Shown: positions 5,282 to 32,912 of the stretch, one piece after another | How the letters are laid out: each line of letters starts with the position of its first letter | Numbering within the stretch: position 1 is the stretch's first letter | Source: Leptolyngbyales cyanobacterium | GTDB taxonomy: Bacteria > Cyanobacteriota > Cyanobacteriia > Leptolyngbyales > Leptolyngbyaceae | Length of the DNA: 33,074 nucleotides | Assembly (NCBI GenBank): GCA_038250345.1 | Contig: JBBSCL010000001.1 | Span: 1 to 33,074 of the forward strand | Reading direction: 5' to 3' | The notes under the pieces: generated by a model | Databases searched by the model: none | What the model saw: the letters and a program-made list of their open reading frames with translations, nothing else | Told to the model about the DNA's origin: nothing | Program-made: the position numbers and the translations under genes

Positions 5282-5306
5282 ATCGTATTACTATAAAATA
5301 GGCGAA

Positions 5307-9207: not shown

Positions 9208-10191
9208 ATTGCAGGGGCGTGTACTTTCCACCTAAGCCTTCGACGATCGCCCTGGTATTGGCAATCAACATTTTGGGATAGGTGCTGGCTTCGCTGCCTG
9301 CTGTGCCAATGCCGTCAGCGTAAAGCTTGCGTGGGCTGACCTTCACCTTTGCTTCTTTTGCCACAGTCGTGATCAACTTCGGATTCACACTTGCCTCAGC
9401 AAAAATGGTGGACACTCCCAATGTTTTGATTTCTCTCACCAAGGTTGCAACCCGAAACGCTGTTGGTCGTTCCTCTGTGCTAATGCCTTGCAGCGTCGGC
9501 GCTAATCCTAAATTATAAGTGCGCGCGCGTAGTATTCAAAGGCATCATGGGTACTGATAATCCAACGCTGTTTGAAGGGAATAGTTTGAATCTGCGATCG
9601 AATCCAGGTATGAATTTGGGTCAGTTCATTAGTGAGTTTTTTGGCGTTGGCTTGATAGCGACTGGCTTGAGTCGGTTGTAGCTTTGTTAACTGTTGACTG
9701 ACGACTTGCACTAACTTTGCACCATTCTCAGCACTGTGAAATACGTGAGGATCTGGGGTTCCGCCACTATGACTATGTCCGCCATCGCCGTGGCTATGGG
9801 AATGTCCACCCATAATTGGGTTGGGTACTGCTACCTCGTAAACTGCTACCTTTGGTGATCGATTGGATGTGGACTGAATCAGCTTAATGAGGTCAGGTTC
9901 AAAATCGTAACCGCCATAAAGAATCAGTGCTGCGGTTTCAATCGCTTTGCGATCGCCCGGTTTAGGGGCGTAGGTGTGCGGGTCATTACCAGGGTTGAGT
10001 AAGCATTTGAGCGCGATCGTGTTTTGAGCAATGCGTTGGGTGATGTCACACAGAATACTGGTCGTGGCAACAACCGTTGGCTTGCTCTGTGCCTCTGTTT
10101 GAGGAGCCAGATAGCTGAACCATCCTGCGGTTAGCAATGGAGCGGCAATATACCAAATGCGATGTGGTTTTCTAAACCAGCGATTGAGCAT
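9206..10191 (-). pseudogene. Second ZnuA-like binding protein with His-rich loop, frameshifted at the (GC)4 tract 9521-9528
   Basis: DPHTYAP, GGHSHSHGDGGHSHSGG, DPHVFH and THDAFEYY. Removing one GC restores ARTYNLGLAPTLQGISTEERP...VREIK, joining ORF 9206-9442. Confidence 0.88.
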
Positions 10192-12120: not shown

Positions 12121-12486
12121 ATGAAAGTTGCTTACGTTTTTAGTACATCTGGACATACCGCAGACTACAAGCTGGGGCAAATGATCTTGCCGCAGTTAAA
12201 AGAAAATAATCATGGTGCAGAAGTCGTCGGGATGTTTTTCTTTGACGACAACACTTACTGTCTGCATCAGGGAAGCCCGATTGGCGAACGACTCGCCACG
12301 GTTGCCAGGGAAAAGAACATTTTGTTGATGATGTGCGATCGCTGTGCGCTGTCACGCGGATTGGCAAAAGGTGAACCCGGTAACTGCACCCCAACGGGCA
12401 CCGTTGAAGGCGTTCAGGTCGGCTGTTTTCCAGACCTGTATGCTGCTTTGGCTGGCAATCCGCTCGATCACATCATCACCATTTAG
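12121..12486 (+). CDS. DsrE-related (SaoD-like) small protein
   Basis: EVVGMFFFDDN, CDRCALSRG and GCFPDLY. GGAG RBS 12 bp after the thrS stop. Confidence 0.7.
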   Translation: MKVAYVFSTSGHTADYKLGQMILPQLKENNHGAEVVGMFFFDDNTYCLHQGSPIGERLATVAREKNILLMMCDRCALSRGLAKGEPGNCTPTGTVEGVQVGCFPDLYAALAGNPLDHIITI

Positions 12487-12536
12487 CCGTTATGATAAAC
12501 GACGATCTCAGATGTTACTAGGGAGACAGGAGGAAC

Positions 12537-13109
12537 GTGAACAATACAACTCACCATGCTTTGGTTGCAGACCAACCCCTCTGGACAACTCAATGGCAGG
12601 CGATCGCCCATAGCAGAATCTGGTTCATGTCCTTTCTCGCGATCGGTGCCTTCAGCAGTGTGATTTATCCCCATCCGCCGCTCGTAGCATTTGGAGCGAT
12701 CGCCGGAACCACACTCAAACCCAAGCCAGCTATTTTGGTTGCCATGCTGATCTGGTTGCTGAATCAAGTTTATGGTTACACACTGCGACAGTATCCCTGG
12801 ACAGCAGGTTCTTTGCTTTGGGGACTGATGATGGGGTTGGGGATACTCGTTGTCACGTTATTGGCATCGCTCCGTCCTCCGTTTAGTCAAAAGACGGTGA
12901 AAGGTCACTGCCTGTGGTTTGGAGCAGTTGCCCTAATTGGCTTTACGGCATTTGAAAGTTTGATTCTGGCACTCGATTGGTTGCTAACGGGCAGCCACAT
13001 ATTGGCCTGGGCGATCACTCGCAGCCTATTAATCAAAGAGGGCGTTTGGGCGATCGGACTCATGCTCATGCACCTTTCCTTAACCCGTTTCACCCGTCCA
13101 GTCCATTAA
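12537..13109 (+). CDS. Hypothetical integral membrane protein (about 5-6 TM)
   Basis: AGGAGG RBS before GTG. Hydrophobic segments with YPHPP and WLLNQVYGY. Confidence 0.75.
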   Translation: MNNTTHHALVADQPLWTTQWQAIAHSRIWFMSFLAIGAFSSVIYPHPPLVAFGAIAGTTLKPKPAILVAMLIWLLNQVYGYTLRQYPWTAGSLLWGLMMGLGILVVTLLASLRPPFSQKTVKGHCLWFGAVALIGFTAFESLILALDWLLTGSHILAWAITRSLLIKEGVWAIGLMLMHLSLTRFTRPVH

Positions 13110-13163
13110 CTCCCAATCACCCTCCCCCCTTCACTTCCCCATTTCTTCACCCCTTCACCTCTT
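13110..13163. repeat. Pyrimidine-rich short tandem repeats (STRR-like)
   Basis: Degenerate CCCCTTCAC-type units between genes. Confidence 0.45.
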
Positions 13164-13412
13164 ATGAATCTATTCTCCCAGAACAAACCAAAAGCTGACC
13201 CAGAGCAGGTTCAGCAGATCAAAAGCTGGGTCTACCGCATTCTAGAAGTGGATGCTGGAATTCCGATTTCCATTAGTCAACTTGCCTGTAAAGAACCGGG
13301 TTGTCCTCCAATTGAAACCGTGATTGCTGTGATGACTCATCCAGTGCAGCAATACAAAATTCACAAAGCTGTAAACGAGATTGACGAAATAGATATTTGT
13401 CGATTGACTTGA
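13164..13412 (+). CDS. Small putative metal-binding protein (CxEPGCPPxET motif)
   Basis: LACKEPGCPPIETVI. Sits in operon position. Confidence 0.72.
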   Translation: MNLFSQNKPKADPEQVQQIKSWVYRILEVDAGIPISISQLACKEPGCPPIETVIAVMTHPVQQYKIHKAVNEIDEIDICRLT

Positions 13413-13461
13413 GTGTTCTAGTTGATGTGTGGAGATCGTAAGTAATTCTGTGAATTAAATC

Positions 13462-13851
13462 ATGGCTCAATATGTTTTATTTGTGTGCAAGTCCTGTGCG
13501 TTTTCATCGACGCAACGAGACTATATGGGACAACGGGGTGGCTATCACTTACTGCAAAGCTTATTACGTCTGCAACAACAGTGGACACTCCAAACTGAGT
13601 ACAAAATTGAGGCAGTCGATTGTTTGAGTGGCTGTAATCGGGCTTGTGCGATCGCCCTCGCTGCACCTCAGAAAACCACTCTAATGTTTGGTGATTTGCC
13701 TCCTCTGCAAAGTGCCTCAGCGATTTTGCAACTGGCAGAACAATACCATGCTATTCCAGATGGCATGGTTCCCCGCCAAGAACGTCCTGATGCCCTCAAG
13801 AAGGGAGTTTTAGCGAGAATTCCGCCTTTACAAAATTTCAGTAGTTCTTGA
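13462..13851 (+). CDS. DUF1636-family Cys-rich thioredoxin-like metal-binding protein
   Basis: LFVCKSC, VDCLSGCNRACAIA, FGDL, DGMVP..ERP and LARIPP. Confidence 0.85.
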   Translation: MAQYVLFVCKSCAFSSTQRDYMGQRGGYHLLQSLLRLQQQWTLQTEYKIEAVDCLSGCNRACAIALAAPQKTTLMFGDLPPLQSASAILQLAEQYHAIPDGMVPRQERPDALKKGVLARIPPLQNFSSS

Positions 13852-13852
13852 C

Positions 13853-13875
13853 TTATTGAGAAAGATTAGCAATAA
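13853..13875. promoter_or_regulatory. Fur(iron)-type box upstream of the feoA-like gene
   Basis: TTATTGAGAAAGATTAGCAATAA (TTATTG/CAATAA arms). It shares TTGAGAAAGATT with the box upstream of the receptor gene at 28211-28230. Confidence 0.55.
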
Positions 13876-14016: not shown

Positions 14017-14424
14017 ATGAGCGGTAGTTGGCAGAACTATGAGGGCTGGGGCTTTACATTTATTGGTGGCAGGTTAGAGCGAGAAGCCTTTCCCAGCCCT
14101 GAGTTTGAGGTCGATCAGAATCCCAACTGGATTCAGCCGTCTTCTCAATCTTCGATTGAAGATAACCTGTTCCCAATCTCTAGAGCATCTGTGGGCGATC
14201 GCCTGTTGATTCAAAGACTACAGAGAACATCAAGTCAGATGTGTTCTCTCACGAAAATGGGATGCAACTGTGGTGTGGAAGTTCAGGTCATGAGTCGGAA
14301 TCCCAGCGGGTCTGTTGTTATCCAGATCGGTTCTGCCCAACTTGGCATCGGAGCCGAACTAACGGACAGAATTCTAGTTAGTGTCTGTGGGTATCAGGCT
14401 GGCGATGATGTCCTGAATCGCTGA
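14017..14424 (+). CDS. feoA: FeoA-domain protein with N-terminal extension
   Basis: FPISRASVGDRLLI...LTKMG..GVEVQV..PSGSVVIQIG..LGIG....RILV SH3-like pattern. Confidence 0.75.
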   Translation: MSGSWQNYEGWGFTFIGGRLEREAFPSPEFEVDQNPNWIQPSSQSSIEDNLFPISRASVGDRLLIQRLQRTSSQMCSLTKMGCNCGVEVQVMSRNPSGSVVIQIGSAQLGIGAELTDRILVSVCGYQAGDDVLNR

Positions 14425-20143: not shown

Positions 20144-21097
20144 TCATCTTTCCTTCAAATGTTTGATAACCATCTCACTGCCGCGCTGTCGCGTTTTAGG
20201 ATTAATGCCGAACAAGCGGATATATTGATCAGGCTGTTCATGCAGACAATCTTCAATAACAGCGATCGCCTCCGCCTCGCGAGTTGTTTTAATTAATCCA
20301 CAATCAGACCAGGAATTTGCTCGAAATCGCCTGGCATCCGCCTGTTCTACTCCAATGTGGTATCCCTGGTTTAGCAGTCTGCGAATCCAGGCTAACGCTT
20401 CAGGGTTTAAAGGCAAAGAGGATCGATGACCGTTGCTAGATCCATTACTTTGCGAACGATCAGAGTGTCCATTTGATTCATCTCGGATTGCGGCAATACA
20501 CACATTATCATCAGCGCACAGGTATCCCTGCCGAAGTTTTTGATTAACGCTGATCACATGACGGGCAAACGTTGAATCTATTTCTTGAACATCGGGTAAG
20601 CGATCGGCTTGTTGCTGATAGGTAATCACTGATCCGGAAGCCACGTATTTACCTGCCGGAATTTCGACATTCTCAATCAAGGCATGGGACATGACAATAC
20701 AGCCATCCCCAACACTGGCGTTGAATACCGTGGAGCGGAAGCCAATAAAGCAGCCGTTCCCCACATAAGCCGGCCCATGAATGAGCGCCATGTGTGTAAT
20801 GGAGGCATTGTCACTAATCCAAACAGAGTAAGGTTCACCATCATTTCCAGTGACTCGCCCCTGCTCCAAGCCATGAATCACCGCACCATCCTGAATATTC
20901 ACATTTGACCCAATGTAGAATGGCATCCCCTCATCTGCCCGAATCGAGACCCCCGGCGCGATGTGAACCTGCGCCCCAATTCGCACATCGCCAATCACGT
21001 TGGTCAGCGAGTGAATGTAGACGCTTGCATCGATCGCTGGCTCAATAAGCTGTTGTGACCAGGGTGTTGGCGGAGCAGGAATACTGTGGCTGTCCAT
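20144..21097 (-). CDS. CcmM-like gamma-carbonic anhydrase with one RbcS-like domain
   Basis: N-terminus [41 protein letters not shown] and CADDNVC. One C-terminal repeat ([22 protein letters not shown]...YIRLFGI). ATG 21097 chosen. Confidence 0.88.
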
Positions 21098-21104
21098 GCT
21101 AAAA

Positions 21105-21125
21105 TGAGAATGATAATCATTCTGC
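21105..21125. promoter_or_regulatory. Overlapping Zur boxes (carbonic anhydrase / cysS divergent promoter)
   Basis: TGAGAATGATAATCA (21105-21119) overlaps TGATAATCATTCT (from 21111). Confidence 0.85.
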
Positions 21126-21172
21126 ATGATAGCTGCAAACGTTACCCGAAAACTAACAGCCTTAATTTTGCT

Positions 21173-22630
21173 ATGAGCCTCGCCGTCTACAACACCCTAA
21201 ATCGCTGCAAAGAGCCGTTTGCGACCCTTGAATCAGGTAAGGTCACGATGTATTGCTGTGGCGTAACGGTCTACGACGACTGCCATTTGGGTCATGCCCG
21301 CTCTTACATTGGCTGGGATGTAGTGCAGCGATATTTGCAATGGCGTGGCTACCAAGTTCGCTATGTGCAAAACTTTACGGATATTGATGACAAGATCTTG
21401 AATCGGGCAAAGGCGGAAGGCAGTTCGATGCAAGCCATTTCCGATCGCTATATTGCGGCTTACTTTCGAGATGTTCGACAGTTAAATATTCTGGATGCAG
21501 ATGAATATCCCCGTGTCACGGAGCATATTCCAGCGATTCATCAATTGATTCAAGCATTAGAAGAGAAAGGCTATGCTTATGCCGTCAATGGCGATGTCTA
21601 CTATAGCGTGCGGCAGTTTGCGGAGTATGGCAAACTTTCTGGACGACAGCTAGAGCAGATGCAGTCCGGGGCGGGTGGACGAGTTGACCCCGATGATCCG
21701 GCGCAGAAAAAGCAAGATTCTTGTGACTTTGCCCTGTGGAAAGCGGCAAAACCCGGTGAACCTGCCTGGGATTCGCCTTGGGGCAAGGGACGACCGGGCT
21801 GGCAGATCGAATGTTCTGCCATGATCCGGGCACGGCTGGGAGAAACGATCGATATTCATGGGGGCGGTGGCGATCTGGTGTTTCCGCACCATGAAAATGA
21901 AATCGCTCAGTCGGAAGTGCTGACGGGTAAACCTTTAGCCCGTTACTGGTTGCACAACGGCATGGTGACGGTGAATGGCGAGAAGATGTCTAAGTCTCTC
22001 GGTAACTTCACCACGATTCAAGATTTGCTGGATGGCAAATGGTCAGAGTATCCGCAGCCAGTTGACCCAATGGTGATTCGGCTATTTGTGCTGCAAGCCC
22101 ACTACCGGAAGCCATTGGATTTTACGAAGGTGGCAATTACCGCCGCCGAGAATGGTTGGCAAACGCTCCAAGACTCGCTGGCATTGGATTTGCCGCAATT
22201 GAATCGATCACCTCAGATGCCAATCCCTAGTGAACTCAATGCAGCATCAGTCAACCGTTTCCAAACCGCAATGGATGATGACTTCAACACAGCGGCTGGA
22301 TTGGCAGTGCTGTTTGAGCTAGCCAAATCGATCAAACGAGAGTTTAATCTGCGCCAATATCAATCGGAAAAAGAACTCTCTGACATACAGCTACAAACTT
22401 CATTGCAGACTCTCACCCGACTGGCTCAAGTATTCGGCTTGGAAGCCAGTAGAGAAACGTCTTCTGCACCGGAGCCTGATGCTGTTTGGATTGCATCACT
22501 ACTCCATCAACGGCAACAGGCACGGCAGGAAAAACGCTATGCAGAAAGCGATCGCATCCGCAACGAACTGCAAGCCGCAGGAATTATCCTCGTTGACCAA
22601 CCCAATGGACAAACCCAGTGGCATCGATAA
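21173..22630 (+). CDS. cysS: Cysteinyl-tRNA synthetase, probable Zur-regulated second copy
   Basis: [50 protein letters not shown] and MDDDFNT. Confidence 0.96.
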
Positions 22631-22656: not shown

Positions 22657-23721
22657 ATGAACCTAAAATCCATCCTGGAGTTGAGCGCTAAAGAAGTCTT
22701 GTCAGATTATGTGACAGCGATCGCCTGGTCACCGATTGGCAATACCTTAGCGGCTGCCTCTGGTGCGGGGGAAGTGTATTTGCTGAGCAAGGGTGTCGGT
22801 GCGTCTCTGTGTGAGCCAACCGGACAATCCATTGATGCTTTAGCCTTTTCGTTTGACGGCAAGTGGCTGGCAACGGGTGGGCAAGCTGGCAACATTACGC
22901 TGTGGCAGATGGATGGAGATATCCCCAAAGTTGCTGATTACCTTGAATGTGGCTCCTGGGTCGATCGCCTAGTCTGGAATCCGACCTGCAATCATCTGGC
23001 GTTTAGTCAGGGGAAAACGGTGCAAATTTGGGACGCGGAGCAGTCTGAAAGAGTAACCAGCCTGGCAGGGATTGCCAGTTCTCAGGATATTCGCTGGTCA
23101 CCGGATGGAAAGCACTTGGCGATCGCCCTTAAAAGCAATATCCACATTTGGAATGCTCATAATTGGAGTGAGCGACTGTATCAGTGGGAAGTGACCTCTC
23201 CAGCCAGTACGATCGCCTGGTCTCCCGATGGTTCCTATCTCGCCTGCGCGGTTCATGACCACAGCATCGGTGTACTGGACTGGTCAAAGGCGCAACACCT
23301 CCAGCGTGAACCGACCGACGAGAATGACCTCCCAACTTTGATGCGCGGATTTCCTGGAAAAATCCGACAGTTAGCATGGGCAGATCTGCCACCCTCGGCT
23401 GACTTGCCTCCCATTCTGGCAGCCGCCACTCGTGAACTGGTGACGATGTGGACGCAAACCCCAGCAGGCTGGGATAGCTGGGTGCTGGATCTCCACAGCG
23501 GCAATGTTCTGGATGTGGCATTTCAACCCAAGAGTGGGCTTCTTGCCTCGCTTTCGGACGACGGCTGGATCATCTTATGGCAAGCAGCACGGTCAGCGGT
23601 GCAGGTGCTTGAAGGCGCAGAGGAAGGCTTTTCTTGTCTCGCATGGCACCTTAATGGACGACACTTAGCAGCCGGAGGGCAGCGAGGCGAATTGTTTGTC
23701 TGGTCGTCCTGTTCAAGTTAA
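22657..23721 (+). CDS. WD40-repeat beta-propeller protein
   Basis: Repeated AWSPDG..LA / I.LW units. Confidence 0.9.
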   Translation: MNLKSILELSAKEVLSDYVTAIAWSPIGNTLAAASGAGEVYLLSKGVGASLCEPTGQSIDALAFSFDGKWLATGGQAGNITLWQMDGDIPKVADYLECGSWVDRLVWNPTCNHLAFSQGKTVQIWDAEQSERVTSLAGIASSQDIRWSPDGKHLAIALKSNIHIWNAHNWSERLYQWEVTSPASTIAWSPDGSYLACAVHDHSIGVLDWSKAQHLQREPTDENDLPTLMRGFPGKIRQLAWADLPPSADLPPILAAATRELVTMWTQTPAGWDSWVLDLHSGNVLDVAFQPKSGLLASLSDDGWIILWQAARSAVQVLEGAEEGFSCLAWHLNGRHLAAGGQRGELFVWSSCSS

Positions 23722-23737
23722 AGGAAAAAATATAGAA

Positions 23738-23752
23738 TGATTATCATTATCA
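23738..23752. promoter_or_regulatory. Zur box upstream of the flavoprotein / FeoB-like pair
   Basis: TGATTATCATTATCA (1 mismatch), overlapping AGAATGATTATCA. Confidence 0.87.
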
Positions 23753-23775
23753 ATTAAGTTTACTCACTGCTCCTC

Positions 23776-24894
23776 ATGAAAAAGCCGGAAGCGTTTGATG
23801 TCATTGTCGTCGGTGCCGGTGCGGCGGGGATTGGAGTTGGAGTTGTGTTGCAAGACTTGGGTCTGGAAAATTTTGCCATCTTGGAACGGCATCAGATCGG
23901 CGAGTCCTTCCGACGCTGGCCCCAGGAGATGCACTTTATCACCCCATCCTTTCCCAGCCACGGCTTTGGGCATCTCGACTTGAATGCGATCGCCCGTAAA
24001 ACCTCCCCTGCGATCAGCTTCCGACGAGAACACCTGAGTGGTACGCAATACGCCCAGTATCTAGAAACCGTTGCCGACTACTTCAAACTGCCCGTCTACA
24101 CAGGCGTTGCAGTCCAGAACGTTGAACCCTTACCCCAGCATCAAGGGTTTCTGCTTCACGTCCCCGATGGCATTCTCAAAACCCGGTTTTTAATTTGGGC
24201 AGCGGGTGAGTTTCAGTATCCTAACCTGACTCCTTTTCCGGGTGCAGATTTATGTCTGCATAACTCCCAAGTGTCTTCCTGGACAGAACTTCAAGGAGAT
24301 GAATTTGTCGTGATTGGCGGGTATGAAAGTGGTATGGATGCAGCAGCGAATCTAGTGGCGCTGGGGAAAAAAGTTAAGGTGTTAGACCGGGCTGGAACCT
24401 GGGCAAACCCAGATTCTGACCCCAGTATTTCTCTGTCTCCTTACACGCAGCAACGAATCGAGTTGTGTTATTCCACTGGGCGATTAGAACTGATTGGGAA
24501 TGTGGCGATCGAAAATGTGCAGGTAGTTCCGGGCGGTTACGCTGTTTACAGCGAATACAACAAGTGGGTGACATCCACTCAACCTATCCTCTGCACTGGG
24601 TTTGAGGGCAGCTTGAAGCAAATCGCCCCGCTGTTTAATTGGTCTGAAGGCTATGCCAGACTAACTGATGAAGATGAATCCACCTTGACCTCTGGATTGT
24701 TTGTTGTGGGTTCTTCGGTGCGTCATGACAATGTGATCTTTTGTTTTATCTACAAGTTTCGTCAACGCTTTGCAGTGGTGGCAAATGCGATCGCCCATCG
24801 TCTTGGCATCGATACGACACCTCTAGAAATCTATCGTCAGGAGGGCATGTTTCTCGACGACCTTTCCTGCTGCGAGAACGACTGCATCTGCTGA
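23776..24894 (+). CDS. NAD(P)/FAD-dependent oxidoreductase (CzcO/FMO-like) with Cys-rich tail
   Basis: VVGAGAAG, WAAGEF, IGGYESGMD and CTGF, ending in DDLSCCENDCIC. Confidence 0.88.
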   Translation: MKKPEAFDVIVVGAGAAGIGVGVVLQDLGLENFAILERHQIGESFRRWPQEMHFITPSFPSHGFGHLDLNAIARKTSPAISFRREHLSGTQYAQYLETVADYFKLPVYTGVAVQNVEPLPQHQGFLLHVPDGILKTRFLIWAAGEFQYPNLTPFPGADLCLHNSQVSSWTELQGDEFVVIGGYESGMDAAANLVALGKKVKVLDRAGTWANPDSDPSISLSPYTQQRIELCYSTGRLELIGNVAIENVQVVPGGYAVYSEYNKWVTSTQPILCTGFEGSLKQIAPLFNWSEGYARLTDEDESTLTSGLFVVGSSVRHDNVIFCFIYKFRQRFAVVANAIAHRLGIDTTPLEIYRQEGMFLDDLSCCENDCIC

Positions 24895-24898
24895 AGCA

Positions 24899-24922
24899 AT
24901 TTTAGATTTTAGATTTTGGATT
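24899..24922. repeat. Heptamer STRR (ATTTTRG)
   Basis: TTTTAGA TTTTAGA TTTTGGA. Confidence 0.6.
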
Positions 24923-24930
24923 AATCCCCC

Positions 24931-26580
24931 ATGCCCCTCCTTAGCCCTTCTACCCAACGCTCGATCGTCCTGATCGGCAAAGAAAGCACCGGTAAGTCTC
25001 AACTGATTGCCTCCCTGACTGGACATTCTCCCTACAGCACCAACTTTCGCGGCTCAACCGTTGACTGCGAAACCTATGCCGGAGATGGGGTTACTTTTGT
25101 GGATACTCCCGGCATCTTGTATCGTTCTGACACTGCCACAACACGAGTCGCACTGGAACAATTGCAGGCATATGACACGGTGTTGCTGGTGGTCAAAGCC
25201 ACTCATGTCGATGAAGACCTAGCGGATTTGTTGCCTTTAGTGGTGGGTAAGCGGGGCATCGTTGTCATCCCGTTTTGGGACAAAGTTGCACCCTCAGATT
25301 TTACATGTCAGGTGATCCGACGCTGGGAACAGACCTCCAATCTAGCGTTTGTTCCAGTCGATGCGAGACATCTGACCGCCGCGCAGCGTGACGAAATTTT
25401 AGCGGCAATGCATGAGCCGTCAGTTTTTCCCAGTCAATGGCAACCCACGCCTGCGGGTTGGATCATTGAACCCCGTCCCACATTGTTGGAGCATCCCCAC
25501 GTTGGCTGGCTGTTGGCGATCGCCCTACTGCTGCTCCCTGCCATCCTGGCTGTCTGGTCTGCCAATAGCTTTGCGGCGTTTGCCGATCCGCTGGTTCAGG
25601 GATTGGTCAAACCAACCCTAGAAGCCCTCTCTGGCTTGCCGCCCTTACTCAAAGAGATCCTGATTGGACGCTATGGATTGGTGACGATGGGACCGCTGCT
25701 GTTTGTCTGGGCAGTGCCGACAGTCATTCTCTACGCTCTGTTTCTAGGGGCTTACAAAGCCAGCGGTTTAGTCGAACGAATTACGATCGCCCTGCATCCG
25801 CTGTTGCGTCCGTTTGGCTTATCGGGGCGCGATTTGGTGCGTGTGATCATGGGTTTTGGCTGTAATGTGCCAGCCGTGATTAGTACCCGTGCTTGCTCCA
25901 GTTGTTCTCGTAAGACTTGCATTTCGGCGATTGCCTTTGGCTCAGCTTGTTCTTATCAATTGGGTGCCACGCTGGGAGTATTTAGCGCGGCAAATCTACC
26001 CTATCTGGTGATTCCCTATTTGCTTTACCTGGTCATCACAACGTTAATTTACACGGGTCTGGTTGCACCAAAAGCGGCTCGTTCTCCACAAAATACGCTG
26101 GTGATCGAACGTCGCGCCTTTCTGGAAGTTCCCCAGTGGTCAGCGATCTGGCGCGAGGCGAAGGGGACACTCAATCAGTTCTTCACCAATGCCATCCCCA
26201 TTTTCCTGATCATCACATTGATTGCTTCTATCTTCGACTGGCTGGGTGTTTTGAATGCCTTGAGCGGATTGATCAATCCGGCAATGCGGTTATTTGACCT
26301 ACCACCGGATGCAGCATTGCCTGTAATTTTGGCATCCATTCGCAAAGATGGCTTGCTGCTGTTTGCTGAACCGAACGCAGCCAGTGGATTGTCTCCGCTG
26401 CAAATCCTCACAGGCGTTTATTTAGCAGGTGTGTTGTTGCCTTGTTTAGTCACGGCGCTAACGATTGCCCGTGAACAGTCGCTCAAGTTTGCGCTGGGGT
26501 TGATGGCACGACAGGCGATCGCCGCAATCGTCTTCACCTTAGTCCTGGCTTGGGGAGGTCGTTTGCTCTGGGCAACTTGA
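24931..26580 (+). CDS. Compact FeoB-like GTPase fused to a gate-domain permease
   Basis: G1 GKESTGKS, G2 NFRGSTV and G3 DTPG. Membrane part has GFGCNVPAVISTR, CSSC, SACSY and LPCLVT. Confidence 0.85.
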   Translation: MPLLSPSTQRSIVLIGKESTGKSQLIASLTGHSPYSTNFRGSTVDCETYAGDGVTFVDTPGILYRSDTATTRVALEQLQAYDTVLLVVKATHVDEDLADLLPLVVGKRGIVVIPFWDKVAPSDFTCQVIRRWEQTSNLAFVPVDARHLTAAQRDEILAAMHEPSVFPSQWQPTPAGWIIEPRPTLLEHPHVGWLLAIALLLLPAILAVWSANSFAAFADPLVQGLVKPTLEALSGLPPLLKEILIGRYGLVTMGPLLFVWAVPTVILYALFLGAYKASGLVERITIALHPLLRPFGLSGRDLVRVIMGFGCNVPAVISTRACSSCSRKTCISAIAFGSACSYQLGATLGVFSAANLPYLVIPYLLYLVITTLIYTGLVAPKAARSPQNTLVIERRAFLEVPQWSAIWREAKGTLNQFFTNAIPIFLIITLIASIFDWLGVLNALSGLINPAMRLFDLPPDAALPVILASIRKDGLLLFAEPNAASGLSPLQILTGVYLAGVLLPCLVTALTIAREQSLKFALGLMARQAIAAIVFTLVLAWGGRLLWAT

Positions 26581-26592
26581 TTGAAGCGCAGC

Positions 26593-27116
26593 TTAATTAC
26601 AGCGAGTCACTTGGGCAGTTTGCAGCACAATCTGATCAATGGCTTGCGTCATCACTTGAGCGGATTGACCAGGCGGATTGACCACAATGCTAAAGGCGAT
26701 CGTGCCATGGTCAGCATTCTCCAGATAGCCAGACAATGCCTTCACCCCTTGTAAGGTTCCGGTTTTGGCATAAACTCTACCTTGAACGGGGGGATCGCGG
26801 AAGCGATTTCGTAAGGTTCCATTCACCCCGGCTACTGATAAAGAGTGATAAAACAGCCCACTTTCATCATGGGTATACATTTCTCTCAGCAGCGTCACAA
26901 AGGTCGATGGCTTCGCCCGATTGTGTCGAGATAATCCTGATCCATCTACCTGCTCATAACTGTTTGAGTTTACCCCCAATAAAGCGAGGGCAGATCTAAC
27001 CGCACGTTGACCGCCGATGCGGCGAAGCAGGGCATCCGCCAGGTCATTATCACTATCTCGGTTGATCACGGTCACCCAATTCTCAAAAGATAATCGGTTC
27101 TGAGGAACGCGATCGC
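26593..27116 (-). pseudogene. dacB: C-terminal fragment of D-Ala-D-Ala carboxypeptidase (peptidase S13)
   Basis: SDN, DGSGLSR, AGVNGTL and AKTGTL..V.ALSGY are present. The N-terminal SxxK is absent and the 5' side runs into receptor sequence. 5' boundary approximate. Confidence 0.8.
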
Positions 27117-28195
27117 GCCTGACAACTCTGCCGCTCCCCGTTCTCGAAGATCTCAGTACTCCGATAACCAGCATTGAAGCGGTAGAGAGCAGTTTTAGAA
27201 TCATTTAACGGTCCAGAGAGATCGATTGTCCCTTGATAGTCATTAAAACTACCAATAGTCGTGCTGATTTCGTAAAACGGATCGCGCAGTGGCTGTTTCG
27301 TCACAAAGTTGACAGTGCCGCCAATGCCACTGAATCCAGTGTCGCCATACAAAACGGAGGCAGGTCCCTTTAACACTTCTAACCGTTCTACATTGACAAA
27401 GCTACCATCTGAAGAAATTTGTGGATCGGGAAGTCCGTTTACCAGAGAGTTAGAATATACCTCGAAGCCTCGAATCGTAAAGTAGTCTCTACTTCCATCT
27501 GTGGTAGAAACTGAGGTTACGCCGCTGACGTTTTCCAATCCATCTGTGATGCTTCTTGCTTGACGATCTTGCAACACCTGTCGCGGCACCACCTGAATCG
27601 ACTGGGGAATATCTCGTAAGGGCGTGTCGGTTCTCGTTCCCACTGAGCTATTCGGCACACGATAGCCCTGCTGTCCTTCGCCCGTCACCACAATTTCTTC
27701 ATCGGGTTCGTCCGCTTCCGGGTTGAGGCTATAGGCAAGTCCTGCGGCTTTCAGCGTCACGTCTTGTTTGGGCAGTGCGGTTTTTCCGGTTACGCTCACC
27801 CGAATGCTGTTAGCATCCACTTGCACCACGCGGATGTTAGCAATTTCCTCAGTGGGGTTCTCAACATTGAAGGGTTGAGTAGTTGGCAATGCCAGCACCG
27901 CATTGGGAATATCTGCAACCAGGCTATTGCCTTCGGCTCTAAATTTGCTGGCATCCACTTGTAGGGAGCGGTTGTCCTGGGTTTCCAGAATGATTTCCAG
28001 CCCCGCAGCAGTTGGGTTGACTTTCACGGCAGTAACTTGAGCATTGGCGGCTTCTACCTGTGCTATCCATTCCGTCACACTTTTTGCCGGACGAGCCAGA
28101 TCGCGAATTCGAGTCGTTGGCTCTGCCCACGCCGATCGCATTCCCATAACTGAAAACACACCTGCTAAAAAGAGCAATCGCAATTCGTGTCTCAT
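27083..28195 (-). pseudogene. Truncated AMIN-domain TonB-dependent siderophore receptor no. 1
   Basis: Signal peptide, AMIN, EEIVVTG and plug (DIPQSIQVV, ERLEVLKGPASVLYG). Breaks off near 27150 at the start of the barrel. Confidence 0.88.
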
Positions 28196-28210
28196 CACCA
28201 CACACCCACT

Positions 28211-28230
28211 TAATACAAATCTTTCTCAAG
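28211..28230. promoter_or_regulatory. Fur-type box upstream of receptor no. 1
   Basis: Minus strand CTTGAGAAAGATTTGTATTA. Confidence 0.5.
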
Positions 28231-28268
28231 TAGCTTACGGTCAAGTGGTGAGGTATAGGCGATCGCTA

Positions 28269-28309
28269 GTTTGCTCAAACGGAATTTCTTGTTTGCTCAA
28301 ACGGAATTT
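28269..28309. repeat. 19-bp perfect direct repeat with 22-bp period; putative AraC operator
   Basis: GTTTGCTCAAACGGAATTT at 28269 and 28291. Confidence 0.8.
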
Positions 28310-28324
28310 TTTGCCAAACCGTCC

Positions 28325-28420
28325 CTAGGACAGCAGGGGCTGTAGCAACGCAATTAATTCAGGAATATCCTGACGAACGGCATTTCATATATCTTGAATG
28401 GACTGCTGATCACGCGACAT
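28325..28420 (-). pseudogene. HEPN (HepT/DUF86) toxin remnant with internal deletion
   Basis: Reads MSRDQQSIQDI*NAVRQDIPELIALLQPLLS* and overlaps the MNT stop. Both termini are DUF86-like and the core is missing. Confidence 0.72.
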
Positions 28421-28724
28421 AGAGCACTTGAGCCGATTGCAAAATGGTGGAGCGCCGATCGAGGTTATGGCTTTGCTCAATCGATTTCTTGGTTAAAAGA
28501 TCCACATTTCGCTCCAGCAAATCCTCTAATTCGTGCTTGATCCGAGCCAGAGTCAGCAAGCCCTTTCGAGCATTGGGCGCAAACGTGATTAATACATCAA
28601 TGTCGCTGGTGGGTTGAAAGTCCTCTCGTAGGACTGATCCAAACAGCGCGAATTCGACAATCTGCCAGCGATCGCACAGTTCTTTAATATGAACCATCGG
28701 TAAGTCGAGATTTTGAATGACCAT
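28410..28724 (-). CDS. Minimal nucleotidyltransferase (MntA-type antitoxin)
   Basis: LFGSVLREDF..SDIDVL and LLERNVDL. Confidence 0.9.
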   Translation of the reverse strand: MVIQNLDLPMVHIKELCDRWQIVEFALFGSVLREDFQPTSDIDVLITFAPNARKGLLTLARIKHELEDLLERNVDLLTKKSIEQSHNLDRRSTILQSAQVLYVA

Positions 28725-28877
28725 CGTGCTAAACCCCAATGTTCCGGTTGTTGATCAAACACTTTCGATCACAGCATAACCGCGATCTCTTCGAGTTACC
28801 CGCAAGGAGTCGCCGCCTTTCCCGATCACTCCTCCACAGCCCTGCACACGATTCCCACTCTGGTCAAACGGAATTTT

Positions 28878-29876
28878 TTAGTGACAATCCCGTGGGTTGA
28901 TATCAAATCGTTTGCTAAAGGCGCGACTAAACGCCGGAAGATTGGTATAACCCACCATGTGGGCAACTTCTCCCACCGTCCAATCGCCTATTTGCAATGC
29001 TTCTCGCGCCTGATTCATGCGATAGTCATGCAAATAACCAAACACCGTTGTCCTAAACACCTGGCGAAATTCCCGCTTCAGGGTGCATTCATTCAAGCCA
29101 ATCAGCCGTGCCAGTTCCCCCAAACTAGGAGGGTTGTCCAACTGTTGCCGCAAAATATCTCTGGCATGGTGAATGCGATCGAGCGCATCGGGTTGCACCC
29201 TGCGGCGCGCTGTGCCGATACCGTCAGGGTCGCCCTCCTGCCGTGCCATCTCTGCTGCTGCCGCCAGCCCCAGAAGTTCTAGCGATTTGCCCTCCAAAAA
29301 CATCCGCTTCGGCATCCCTTGAAACTCACACCGCAACATTTGCCGTGCAACCGATTGCATTGCCGGAGTTTCCGTCCCAAACTGTTTATAGCGCGGTTGC
29401 TCCAGTGGTCGCACCCAAGGCTGTAAGGCAGTGGGCAGTTCCCCTTCTGAGTCGCCAATAAGCGATCGCAGCACGTCCCTTCGCATGAAAACCAGCACTT
29501 CTAGAAAAGGCTGCTGATCCAATAACTCAAAGGTCGCTTTGGGCATCACTCCACTACCATATAGACAGTATTGCTTCGCCCCCAGCAGGTCGCCATCATT
29601 CTCATGGCTTCCCGCCAAATGCAGGTGGAACTCTAGATACTCTTCTGGCGCTTATGGCTGGGCAGACTGGACGCGATCGCGCAGTTGGAGATGACCCAGC
29701 GTCAGTGCCAGCCCCTCTCGCAACTGGATCGTGCGCCAATAGCCTTGACCCATGATGGGCGGAAATTTACCCATAAAGTCCTGATCATCGGCTGGATCTG
29801 GATGATACGTCGGCTCGACGCTCTCCATTTCATCAAACAACTCATCGTAGGCAGGTTGGGAAATGCTGACAGTCAT
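28878..29876 (-). pseudogene. AraC/PchR-type regulator no. 1 with in-frame TAA at 29652-29654
   Basis: GQGYWRTIQLREGL...SAQP*APEEYLEFHLHLAG is one continuous frame. The C-terminal PPSL.ELAR..GLNECTLKREF double HTH is present. Confidence 0.88.
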
Positions 29877-29938
29877 AGGGCAATGTCAGGTCAACTGAGA
29901 AACAGAGAACTCTTAACAAGAAAGTATCGCATTAATTT

Positions 29939-30562
29939 CTAGCCCCCACCAGTGAGCAGGCAACCAGGCTTTAAACCTCGCTGAACTGTAGCGCAACGTG
30001 ACAGCACGGTGACACATTGTTTGCAGTAGCGGTTTTGTTCTCCCGTGACCACAATCTCCTCATCGGGTTCTTCTGCTTCCGGGTTAAGGCTGTACGCGAG
30101 TCCTGCGGCTTTCAGCGTCACCTCTTGTTTGGGCAGGGCATTGGTTCCGGTAACGCGCACCCGAATGCTATTGACATCCTGCTGCACCACCTGCACACTG
30201 GCAATTTCCTGAGTTGGATTCTCAGCAGTAAATGCCTGGACCTCGGTTAACGCCAGCACTGCATTGGGAATATCAGCAACTAGGCTGTTACCCTCCGTGC
30301 GAAATTTGGTCGCATCCACCTGTAAGGGTTTGCCTTCTGCGGTTTCTAGGGTGATTTCCAGTCCCGTATCGGTGCGATTTAGCTTCACACCTGTCACCTG
30401 CACGGTTGCTGCTTCCACTTGTGCCAGCCAGTCTTTCACCGTTGTTGCCGGATGGCTCAGATCACGAACACGAGAGACATTGATTGTCTCTGCTTGTGCA
30501 GATGGAGAGAGCAACACTAAAGCAGCGCTAACCAACACACTCAACCGAAATGGAAATGCCAT
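29939..30562 (-). pseudogene. Truncated TonB-dependent receptor no. 2 (signal peptide and AMIN only)
   Basis: Paralogous to the N-terminus of receptor no. 1. Similarity stops after EEIVVTGEQNRY (about 30027). Confidence 0.85.
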
Positions 30563-30591
30563 ACCACTCACACTCACACACGCAACAGTTA

Positions 30592-30609
30592 TCAAGAATA
30601 TATCTCAAG
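30592..30609. promoter_or_regulatory. Fur-type box upstream of receptor no. 2
   Basis: Minus strand CTTGAGATATATTCTTGA. Confidence 0.5.
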
Positions 30610-30645
30610 AAGATCACTGTGAAGTAGAGCAGGATGGTAGCCAGG

Positions 30646-30687
30646 TTTGATCCTTAGCCGGAATTTTTTGATCCCTAGCCGGAATTT
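30646..30687. repeat. 21-bp tandem direct repeat; putative AraC operator
   Basis: TTTGATCCTTAGCCGGAATTT / TTTGATCCCTAGCCGGAATTT, next to the AraC stop. Confidence 0.8.
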
Positions 30688-30688
30688 T

Positions 30689-31696
30689 TTAGATCAGTTG
30701 GCTTTTTTTATGAGCGATCGCGTAAGCTTTGGGCGTAATTCCAAACTTTTCTTTGAAGGCAGATGAAAAGTGTCCTCGGTGAGTAAAGCCAATTTCCCGC
30801 GCCACTTCTGCCACACTCATCTCCCCAGTTACCAACAGCCAACTTGCTTGCGTTAAGCGGTAGTCATGCAGATAGTCAAACACACTCTTGCCAAATACCT
30901 GGCGAAACCCTCGCTTAAGGGTGCAATCGTTTAGCTCCACCTGACGAGCCAAATCCATTAATGAGGGCGGATGATCTAACCGTTGCAGCAAGATAGTCTT
31001 TGCTTGATAAATTCGATCCAGATCATCCAGGTTCAACGCAGGGGGATGGGTTTTCCCCAGCCGCAGCTCAATTTCCTGCTCCACCATCAGCGCCAGCAGT
31101 TCCAATACTTTGCTTTCAAGATAGATACGTTTCGCCGTTCCTTGATAGCATCGGCGCAGCAGTTGTTGTACCGCAATCTGCATCTCTGTCGTGATCGTGC
31201 CATAACGATAGTAGTATTTCTGATTAGGTTGCTTGAGTAAATGCAGCGATTCCAGATCAATGTCTCTGCCAGGTTTGGCAAGAAATGAGCGAAACAGGGT
31301 AGCGGAAATATGAACATTGATTTGGAGCATCGACTGTTGGGCAGATTCTTCATATAATCCGCCCGGCGCTAAACCACTGCCACAGAATCAGTAGTGTCCT
31401 GGAGTCACGACTTCCTCTTTGTTCTTAATCTGGAAATTGCTTGCCAGCAGAAAGCCACACTGGATTGGGTGCTCGTGCTCGTCAAATTTCCGCCTCAAGC
31501 CGTTGTGGAGTTGATAATCCATCACCTGCAATTCCAACCCCTCGCGTAACTCAATCTCGCGCACAAATCCCTTTCCTAGCGTAGGGGGAAAGCTCCAACT
31601 GACATCCAATTGATCTAAGGGGTCAATGTGTTGGGGTGCGGCGTTGGCTTCGTCCCAAAGATTTGAGTAAGCTTGTGATGAAATGACGATCGCCAT
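30689..31696 (-). pseudogene. AraC/PchR-type regulator no. 2 with in-frame TGA at 31388-31390
   Basis: PGHY*FCGSGLAP...SMLQINVH is one continuous frame. The HTH PPSLMDLARQVELNDCTLKRGF is present. Confidence 0.88.
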
Positions 31697-31716
31697 AATT
31701 TACCCCCAATCAACAT

Positions 31717-31740
31717 TTTATTGAGAAATAATCTCATAAA
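31717..31740. promoter_or_regulatory. Fur-type box upstream of AraC no. 2
   Basis: TTTATTGAGAAATAATCTCATAAA, with a TGAGA-N5-TCTCA palindrome. Confidence 0.65.
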
Positions 31741-31805
31741 ATATCGTTTAAAACATCGTTGATTCAAAAGAGAAATGGCGCTTATCTTTCTCCCATGAGG
31801 TAACC

Positions 31806-32912
31806 TTACGGCTGACTCAAGTAGCAGTGGCAATCGGGTTTAGCAATCAGCGATTCTGCCAAAGCATTGAGCGCGGTGGCTGCCAATAATCCACCGCCAA
31901 TCGTTCCCTCAATGGTAATGAAGGGAACTCCAGAGCGCATCAACTGACGCTTGGCGATCGGCGCATGGCTAAACCCGATCGGCATTCCTATTACTAATGC
32001 AGGCTGAATCTGCTGTTGCGAGATCGCTTTACAAACAGTCAGCAAGACCGATGGCGCATAGCCAATAACGAGAATACAGCCAGATTTACAGGCTTGCAAG
32101 CGTTCTTGCCAAAGTTGCTGCTGCCAAAATGCCTGCTCTGCCTCGTCAGCATTGGTAATATGCGGATCATCGATCAGTGTGGCAATGTCGCAGCCCAGAT
32201 GGCGCAGACGCGGTTGATCGAGCGCGCTGGTGACGGCGGGAACATCCGCCACAATTTGGCAGCCTGCTTTCAAAACCTCTCGACTGACCGCGATCGCATC
32301 CCGGCTCAACCGGACAAAAGATACCAGGCTGACATCGCCACACGCCAACACTAAGCGAGACAACAAATCGACTTCAATTTCAGAACGATCGCTTAAGTCG
32401 GGCAACAGCCAGTGCAGCGATTCCTGGAAGACTTCGGGATGCTGATGCACTTCTGTATCCATTTCATTCCACAGATGCTCAAAGCTATCCAGACTGGTTT
32501 GAGTCTCGGCTTCTAACTGTTTCAATCGGGAGATCGCTTCTGCCTGCGTTGCCTGACAGTGGCGATCGCGCCCCAACAGCCGTTCGAGTGCCGTTGCCGT
32601 ATGGCGTAACTGGGTGATCTGCTGCATCACTGTTTGGTATTGCCGATATAACTGAGTCAACAGAATTTCAGGCGTTTCGCTGGCTAAATCGGCTTCCAGC
32701 AATTTCTGAATATGCGTCAGTTGAAATCCCTGTTTCTTCAACGCCATGATGCGCTTGAGCCGTTGCACATCCTGTTGAGTGTAAAGGCGGTAATTTCCGG
32801 GCGATCGTTCTGGCTGAGGCATCAACCCCAACTGATGATAATGCCGCACCATCCGGGGAGTAATGCCTGTTCCGATCGCATCGGTTAATTCTTTAATCGT
32901 GAGAGGACTCAT
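31806..32912 (-). CDS. coaR: CoaR/CorR-like cobalt sensor: MerR HTH fused to a precorrin-8X methylmutase-like domain
   Basis: TPRMVRHYHQLGL...GNYRLY, VIGYAPS, LVIGMPIGF and a C-terminal CHC motif. Confidence 0.8.
   Translation of the reverse strand: MSPLTIKELTDAIGTGITPRMVRHYHQLGLMPQPERSPGNYRLYTQQDVQRLKRIMALKKQGFQLTHIQKLLEADLASETPEILLTQLYRQYQTVMQQITQLRHTATALERLLGRDRHCQATQAEAISRLKQLEAETQTSLDSFEHLWNEMDTEVHQHPEVFQESLHWLLPDLSDRSEIEVDLLSRLVLACGDVSLVSFVRLSRDAIAVSREVLKAGCQIVADVPAVTSALDQPRLRHLGCDIATLIDDPHITNADEAEQAFWQQQLWQERLQACKSGCILVIGYAPSVLLTVCKAISQQQIQPALVIGMPIGFSHAPIAKRQLMRSGVPFITIEGTIGGGLLAATALNALAESLIAKPDCHCYLSQP

Follow-up and report, generated by a model that had tools for sequence, protein, structure and literature searches.

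The closest described system to the one reported here is a gene neighbourhood drawn by Haas et al. in 2009 (PMC2770081), where Fig. S13 of Additional file 3 shows, under COG0523 subgroup 14 and without a proposed function, a 'TrxB-FeoB-COG0523' cluster. The same pair, a flavoprotein gene followed by a gene for a FeoB-family permease, stands in a 33,074-nt stretch of a Leptolyngbyales cyanobacterium (contig JBBSCL010000001.1, assembly GCA_038250345.1), which is called the window below. In 2009 the pair was drawn for Staphylococcus aureus N315, S. epidermidis RP62A (with ZnuA), Crocosphaera watsonii and Cyanothece ATCC 51142; the cluster is a neighbourhood note with generic labels, and Feo is not mentioned in the main text and no Zur site is listed for the cluster. 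Loci L116 and L054 of our own set show the arrangements of that drawing, and the window pair differs from it in that no COG0523 gene is adjacent. For the flavoprotein the sole close structure is 3D1C ('SAFMO') of S. aureus Mu50 (NP_373108.1), described as a Baeyer-Villiger monooxygenase (BVMO) with a docking-based antibiotic hypothesis (Hwang et al. 2018, via PMC10604202); the available part of that account makes no link to zinc. No functional study of the pair was found in the literature covered, to which most subscription papers and bioRxiv supplements did not belong, and the accessible parts of PMC11672702, PMC3323870, PMC8000910, PMC11920956 and PMC12094164 hold nothing on it. In print, the pair is known as the 2009 neighbourhood.

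Judged from sequence comparisons, the pair is a conserved zinc-starvation module, found from bacteria to archaea, with predicted repression by Zur, and can be regarded as a widespread and tightly coupled branch of the response to low zinc. Coupling of the two genes is well supported, and so is their control by zinc starvation, whereas Zur control as such is predicted. The features of the pair in the window are the following (ORF, open reading frame; FAD, flavin adenine dinucleotide; CNT, concentrative nucleoside transporter):

23732-23752: Zur-type operator ATAG-AATGATTATCATT-ATCA, 23 bp before the flavoprotein start, with one mismatch to TNANAATGATNATCATTNTNA and a perfect core
23776-24894, + strand: flavoprotein ORF, 372 residues (Pyr_redox_3, E 2.7e-96), a YpdA/CzcO-like FAD/NAD(P) oxidoreductase (PF13738) with an orthologue-level match to S. 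aureus 3D1C
24742-24768, + strand: flavoprotein motif C323-x-IYKFR-x-R, in 10/10 cross-phylum and 55/55 cyanobacterial sequences
24859-24891, + strand: C-terminal CC-x3-CxC tail of the flavoprotein (CCENDCIC), 55/55 in the cyanobacterial alignment
24931-26580, + strand: permease ORF, 549 residues (GTPase and two Gate domains), a FeoB-family permease of a distinct short clade, with a G domain, a short linker without the GDI domain and a CNT-like membrane domain
24976-25368, + strand: G-domain motifs G1 GKESTGKS, G2 NFRGST, G3 DTPG, G4 PFWD and G5 VDAR
25861-25950, + strand: gate-1 cysteines C311 and C340, flanking the family-specific C322-xx-C325-x4-C330 (25894-25920)
26341-26445, + strand: gate-2 RKD473 and LPC505, at the positions of E. 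coli E582 and C677

The two ORFs are co-oriented and separated by a gap of 36 bp, and the gene 3′ of the permease is convergent, in agreement with a first-pass annotation of this DNA that had recognised a two-gene unit of a flavoprotein ending in CCENDCIC and a 549-residue FeoB-like protein. Its view of the pair as a conserved unit was borne out by 80 related loci: the flavoprotein gene is present in 74, upstream and on the same strand in 73, and within 1 kb in 72. Five of the remaining seven loci end within 266 bp upstream, one has the flavoprotein downstream and one lacks it within 6 kb; a permease without a nearby flavoprotein was thus seen at one of the 75 loci having sufficient upstream DNA. 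A search of 300 further genomes, sampled once from the phylum, found orthologues of the permease and of the flavoprotein in the same four genomes, adjacent to each other. Order and adjacency of the pair are kept across four phyla and archaea while the other island genes shuffle. In the annotated neighbourhoods (Klebsiella, Pantoea, Paenibacillus, Halocatena, Haloarcula, Staphylococcus and Acaryochloris) it is set among zigA, folE2, dksA, hisI, cysS, rpsN, rpmG and genes for zinc-binding (Zn-ABC) proteins, so that the neighbours are zinc-sparing genes in each lineage examined. Plasmid records matching the permease number 547, weak canonical FeoB matches included, and 499 of them are from Klebsiella. 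The same island is found on two Acaryochloris plasmids, L118 and L119, of which only one has the permease, and the two represent a natural deletion pair.

An independent metagenome reproduces the operator and the permease nearly unaltered (run X9, contigs at 23367-23991 with no differences and at 24626-27298 with one). Two poly(A) RNA libraries of one study gave short, low-depth contigs on both genes, for which DNA carry-over is possible, and no contig that bridges flavoprotein and permease by 31 bases. A scan of the + strand for a sigma-70 promoter or terminator yielded none that passed.

For the operator we used the RegPrecise cyanobacterial Zur motif NTNANAATGATNATCATTNTNAN, as quoted in the methods of PMC9337993. 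The perfect core AATGATNATCATT lies at 23736-23748, and the best register is 23732-23752. Perfect cores number seven in the 4.1-Mb assembly and five within the window, and the pattern TGATAATNATTATCA has six sites in the window vs. 0.08 expected. Among the 80 related loci, 69 have an N-terminal flavoprotein match on the + strand, and 68 upstream regions were left after one locus short of upstream DNA was set aside. An operator with at most two mismatches is present in 59 of these 68 and a perfect core in 42, vs. 0.0 in dinucleotide shuffles; none of 18 other FeoB-family loci (4-6.5 kb each) reached two mismatches to the cyanobacterial motif. In S. epidermidis and S. arlettae the flavoprotein gene is preceded by a Bacilli-type Zur box (TAAATCGTAATnATTACGATTTA type), which in Paenibacillus stands before the operon of this gene. 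A gamma-type box (ATGTTATAnnATAACAT type) precedes the gene in Pantoea, with a looser match in Klebsiella; both types are tabulated in Additional file 5 of PMC2770081. For Zur vs. Fur, such a test of boxes across lineages is stronger than the cyanobacterial motif alone. The Zur box of the first-pass annotation stands, with its single mismatch, before the flavoprotein gene, and the word 'dedicated' has to be qualified, as the WD40 gene stops 10 bp before the operator and read-through from the Zur-boxed cysS-WD40 unit is possible.

Published expression data for S. aureus (PMC5480029) report that calprotectin raised NWMN_2481 (COG0523), NWMN_2482 (hypothetical) and NWMN_2483 (FAD oxidoreductase) 43.2-, 83.1- and 152-fold, and sulfide raised them 2.4-, 4.0- and 5.5-fold, respectively; sulfide gave a Zur-regulon response, and an iron-limitation response was not measurable. 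By the gene order of S. epidermidis locus L116 and of the 2009 figure, NWMN_2481-2483 is the probable S. aureus form of this module. Boxes in three lineages and these expression results (PMC5480029) both uphold the earlier proposal of zinc (Zur) rather than iron control, and the opposite pattern, a response to iron and not to zinc, was not seen. With the module, a context is at hand for the S. aureus flavoprotein, an orphan of solved structure in a probable operon with strong induction by host calprotectin, as well as for a gene on about 499 Klebsiella plasmid records.

Like E. coli FeoB, the permease has an N-terminal TRAFAC GTPase and two Gate motifs and keeps the C403, C432, C677 and E687 positions, with E582 as Asp. 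Unlike FeoB as represented by TIGR00437 and PRK09554, it has G1 GxE(S/N)xGK, G4 TxxD, an added CxxC-x4-C and no GDI domain; its operator is of Zur type, and its partner is a flavoprotein, not feoA or feoC. The score against TIGR00437, the FeoB equivalog, was 109.6 bits, below the cut-off of 315.65, and a profile search gave no FeoB_C and no FeoB_Cyto match. In the predicted structure (predicted local distance difference test, pLDDT, 91.3) the G domain resembles that of S. thermophilus NFeoB (Z 19.4, root-mean-square deviation, rmsd, 2.5 over 158 residues) and the membrane part resembles CNT proteins (Z 16.2, rmsd 4.8, 297 residues; also Z 15.8), full-length FeoB being absent among the fold matches listed. 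The linker from G5 to the membrane domain, a coil in the model, has 49 residues vs. 136 in E. coli FeoB. Across the family it spans 44-60 residues (one of 77) vs. 77-154 in other FeoBs, and the permease is short because the GDI domain is gone.

To locate the conserved positions, we used an alignment of 61 family rows (including an intermediate, P0320, and one staphylococcal row), 26 other FeoB-family rows and E. coli FeoB. C311 corresponds to E. coli C403 and is Cys in 61/61 family and 26/26 other rows; C340, of the SAC motif, corresponds to C432 (60/61 and 26/26), and C505, of LPC, to C677, likewise Cys in 26/26 of the others. C429 and C675 of P. aeruginosa are the same gate cysteines according to PMC4847171. 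D473 aligns with E582 (Asp in 13 of the 26 other FeoBs) and E515 with E687. Of the cysteines that the first-pass annotation had taken as extra, those of CSSCSRKTC are indeed family-specific (C322 in 59/61 vs. 0/26; C325 in 54/61; C330 in 51/61), while SAC and LPC turned out to be ordinary gate cysteines. The CxxC-x4-C loop is probably on the cytoplasmic side, to judge by alignment, secondary structure and charge. Other family-specific residues are D301, Y342, Q528, the G1 glutamate (58/61) and the G4 threonine (54/61). A Cys of switch I, C46, was considered as a fourth ligand and occurs in 37/61 family rows and 61/120 close homologues.

The non-canonical G4 noted earlier was confirmed, with T-x-x-D in the family vs. 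N-x-x-D in other FeoBs; the window permease has the rarer form PFWDK (6 of 120 close homologues, the other 114 having TFWDK). An assembly error at P114 is unlikely, since the residue is common to those six and is also read in an independent contig. As 45/120 close homologues keep an N in G1, the idea that the family as a whole has lost the K+-binding Asn was rejected.

In a membrane-domain tree (30 family and 26 other rows) a branch with a Shimodaira-Hasegawa-like approximate likelihood ratio (SH-aLRT) support of 99 separates the family from the rest, and under a mixture model with the Cys-loop columns removed (20 and 21 rows) the separate branch was supported at 100/99. Both trees are unrooted and use groups defined from search scores, with the L111 fragment and P0265 left out. 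The branch thus stays apart from canonical FeoB, as first proposed, and the clustering with canonical FeoB that would have spoken to the contrary was not found. Nearest among the non-family sequences are short FeoBs with RRD and IPCSAQ motifs. P0320, with canonical FeoB G motifs, a short linker and a partial Cys loop, is basal to the family in both trees. Taken together, score, missing GDI domain, tree position and gene context place the protein outside the FeoB equivalog, yet it is predicted to function like a FeoB-type permease.

Staphylococcal permeases have no P-loop or G domain, and therefore the 'GTP-gated' transport of the first-pass annotation cannot be universal. The gene for one of them (L116, 6001-8234) overlaps that for a highly divergent COG0523 GTPase that could take over the role of the missing G domain in trans. 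FeoB-family membrane proteins of 488 residues lacking a G domain were also seen in other cyanobacteria (L107, L108). A protein of 923 residues (P0265) was considered as a fused form and dismissed, since it lacks a second domain and resembles an artefact of read-through; longer proteins were not searched for.

The match between the flavoprotein and 3D1C is full-length, tail included (E 1.6e-75, Z 24.0), and the TPSF, CxIYKFR and CC-x3-CxC features of 3D1C are all present in the window protein. The next structural neighbours are YpdA/Bdr (Z 18.6) and siderophore N-hydroxylases (Z 17.9), with a model of moderate quality (pLDDT 72, rmsd about 7). The profile scores were 66.1 bits vs. a cut-off of 339.9 for TIGR04018 (YpdA/Bdr) and 20.6 vs. 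343 for TIGR01292 (TrxB, the label used in 2009), there is no CxxC, and the protein is far below the ArsO cut-off. Nor does it carry the flavin-containing monooxygenase (FMO)/BVMO fingerprint FxGxxxHxxx(Y/F/W): at FPGADLCLHNSQV there are five residues between G and H (FPGADLCLH). Like YpdA/Bdr (TIGR04018) and CzcO (COG2072), the flavoprotein has a thioredoxin-reductase-like FAD/NAD(P) fold without CxxC; unlike them, it has its own C-terminal Cys tail and is induced by lack of zinc, not excess. In B. subtilis, CzcO shares a transcript with CzcD, a Zn/Cd exporter, and one flavoprotein homologue is labelled CzcO by the Joint Genome Institute (JGI).

Comparison of ten flavoproteins from cyanobacteria, Bacillota, Proteobacteria and one archaeon showed C366 and C370 of the tail in 10/10, C365 in 8/10 and C372 in 9/10, and C323 is a candidate catalytic or metal-binding cysteine. 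The tail has low pLDDT in the model and is probably mobile; it can be likened to the mobile C-terminal Cys arm that carries metal in mercuric reductase. As the sequence opens directly with the Rossmann motif (from residue 13), the flavoprotein is taken to be cytoplasmic and hence unable to act on chelates outside the cell. That a reductase would release the metal from thiol complexes, as suggested earlier, is unlikely in the case of zinc, because Zn(II) is redox-inert and leaves thiolates upon oxidation, not reduction.

Our leading interpretation, held tentatively and with less than even confidence, is that the pair serves auxiliary Zn(II) import beside ZnuABC, with the cytoplasmic flavoprotein acting in a thiol relay. 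As zinc falls, Zur would leave the box 23 bp before the flavoprotein gene. The membrane domain, of CNT/Gate fold, would bind a divalent ion of the soft kind at C311/C340/C505/D473, the same site as in FeoB, and the G domain, linked directly without a GDI domain and dispensable in staphylococci, would time the transport cycle. The CxxC-x4-C loop of the permease and the CC-x3-CxC tail of the flavoprotein would together form the relay, its thiols held reduced and zinc-competent by NAD(P)H/FAD, and the tail would accept the ion for delivery to COG0523 chaperones and to the island's back-up enzymes. This interpretation draws on the operator and its conservation, the zinc-sparing neighbours, the coupling of the genes, the S. 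aureus induction, the separate branch, the extra cysteines conserved in both partners, and the canonical FeoB that two of the four genomes with the pair keep besides. In a more far-reaching version, which we consider rather unlikely, the clade would be a branch of the FeoB superfamily that imports zinc and has its own redox relay: the flavoenzyme would dock its four-Cys tail on the cytoplasmic loop and unload Zn(II) to chaperones, and the whole would form a third class of zinc uptake reaching from haloarchaea and cyanobacteria to S. aureus and the Klebsiella virulence plasmid. If zinc is the cargo, FeoB-fold proteins gain a new one, and the unchanged core ligands would be a natural experiment on FeoB selectivity.

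Several observations weigh against zinc import by a coupled pair. As aligned, the four candidate ligands are those of FeoB, so no change in the first shell points to zinc, and regulation by Zur leaves the cargo unfixed. A cyanobacterial Fur-like pattern also fits 23732-23752 with two mismatches, so the cyanobacterial motif alone cannot exclude Fur. ZnuA-family proteins are present in 5/5 genomes tested, among them the four of the sample that carry the pair. The neighbouring COG0523 proteins fall into several clades, for which reason a dedicated COG0523 partner or chaperone was rejected. The link between the two genes is asymmetric: Paracoccus, Enterococcus and Acaryochloris pREB2 have the flavoprotein alone, which therefore does not need the permease. 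In addition, loss of AdcA and CntA severely impairs S. aureus in a medium poor in zinc (PMC5666155), so its module copy, which has no G domain, does not replace a high-affinity importer.

This last defect would be expected if the pair imported not zinc but, under Zur control, a substitute metal (Co(II), Fe(II) or Mn(II)) for zinc-independent or cambialistic back-up enzymes, with the flavoprotein keeping the ion or its ligands reduced. This is the main rival, possible if on the doubtful side. It fits the unaltered ligand set, an NAD(P)H flavoprotein is chemically more sensible for Fe or Co than for redox-inert Zn, and the module travels with folE2, gamma-carbonic anhydrase, hemB, thrS and cysS paralogues, with DUF1636 and a CoaR-like gene also in the window. 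P. gingivalis FeoB2 is said to be a FeoB paralogue with a non-iron (Mn) cargo. Yet the Cys-rich added motifs suit Zn, feoA never travels with the pair (none within 6 kb in 80 loci, with the FeoA-domain ORF of the window as the one query), and importers are usually regulated by their own metal, as argued in PMC5666155. If this rival is true, the module shows how cells supply the back-up enzymes turned on when zinc is short. The structural neighbours of the flavoprotein, bacillithiol disulfide reductase YpdA/Bdr and siderophore N-hydroxylases, together with the deposition of 3D1C as a putative monooxygenase, would also suit synthesis or turnover of a small organic ligand for zinc. The flavoprotein would then be a monooxygenase or thiol oxidoreductase with a thiol or amine as its substrate (oxidative zinc release or chelator synthesis), and the permease, being of CNT fold, would transport this ligand or the complex that it forms with the metal. 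The two CNT matches and the family-specific polar residues near the site (D301, Y342, Q343, T508 and Q528) are in line with this, but the Gate fold is common to all FeoBs, the flavoprotein model is only moderate, the FMO spacing FxGxxxH is lacking and conserved biosynthetic partner genes were not seen beside the pair in the 80 loci; we regard it as unlikely.

It is improbable that the two genes are independent members of the Zur regulon that merely share a promoter, the flavoprotein having its own job in zinc-poor cells and no contact with the permease. Solo flavoproteins, rpsN between the two genes in haloarchaea and COG0523 between them in one Chloroflexia locus would agree with this, whereas order and adjacency conserved over four phyla and archaea, and the single permease in 75 lacking a nearby flavoprotein, speak for coupling. 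Least probable is an ordinary Fur-controlled Fe(II) FeoB, partnered by a feoA ORF 9.4 kb upstream and replacing a missing canonical FeoB. Canonical FeoB was not found in the 79%-complete assembly and a FeoA ORF is present in the window; two of the four genomes carrying the pair have no FeoB over the cut-off, and automatic names read 'ferrous iron transport protein B'. Against it stand the separate branch, a score far under the TIGR00437 cut-off, Zur-type boxes in three lineages and the S. aureus induction without an iron response (PMC5480029).

The pair closes a zinc-starvation island of about 25 kb, in an assembly of 79% completeness; the homologues are cyanobacterial. Two further features bear on it:

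1801-23721: surrounding zinc-starvation island with hemB, znuABC, thrS, three COG0523 genes, folE, hisI, ccmM-like, cysS and WD40 genes, and five further Zur-type boxes
14017-14424, + strand: orphan FeoA-domain ORF in the same island, 9.4 kb upstream of the pair and the sole one in the assembly

The first-pass annotation had noted no adjacent feoA, which is literally true, but this FeoA-domain ORF lies within the window. It resembles the feoA adjoining canonical cyanobacterial feoB and is probably not part of the flavoprotein-permease module; an imperfect palindrome at 13855 before it is unlike the Zur core.

The five other Zur-type cores, at 5305, 8025, 10223, 15175 and 21109, stand before hemB, znuA/znuC, thrS, the sufE-COG0523-folE-hisI run and cysS/ccmM-like. 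The cysS paralogue (21086-22630, + strand) has GWQIEC in place of the usual GWHIEC, whose His is a zinc ligand; its true start is probably near 21173, because the Zur-type box falls within the called ORF. It has this box in common with a short ccmM-like protein gene (20144-21127, - strand), encoding a gamma-carbonic-anhydrase domain and one RbcS-like domain, relatives of which occur in 29/80 related loci, mostly behind hisI. A second znuA-family gene (9236-10191, - strand) is apparently split over two frames (profile positions 1-176 and 173-263). After thrS, at 12121-13851 (+ strand), there are genes for a SaoD/DsrE-family protein (above the NF040913 cut-off), a 190-residue membrane protein, an 82-residue CxxPGCPP protein and DUF1636, the last three recurring in 2, 6 and 3 of the 80 loci, respectively. 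Beyond the pair, the - strand at 27083-32912 carries truncated TonB-receptor pieces (AMIN, Plug), AraC fragments, a nucleotidyltransferase and a CoaR-like MerR-precorrin-isomerase fusion.

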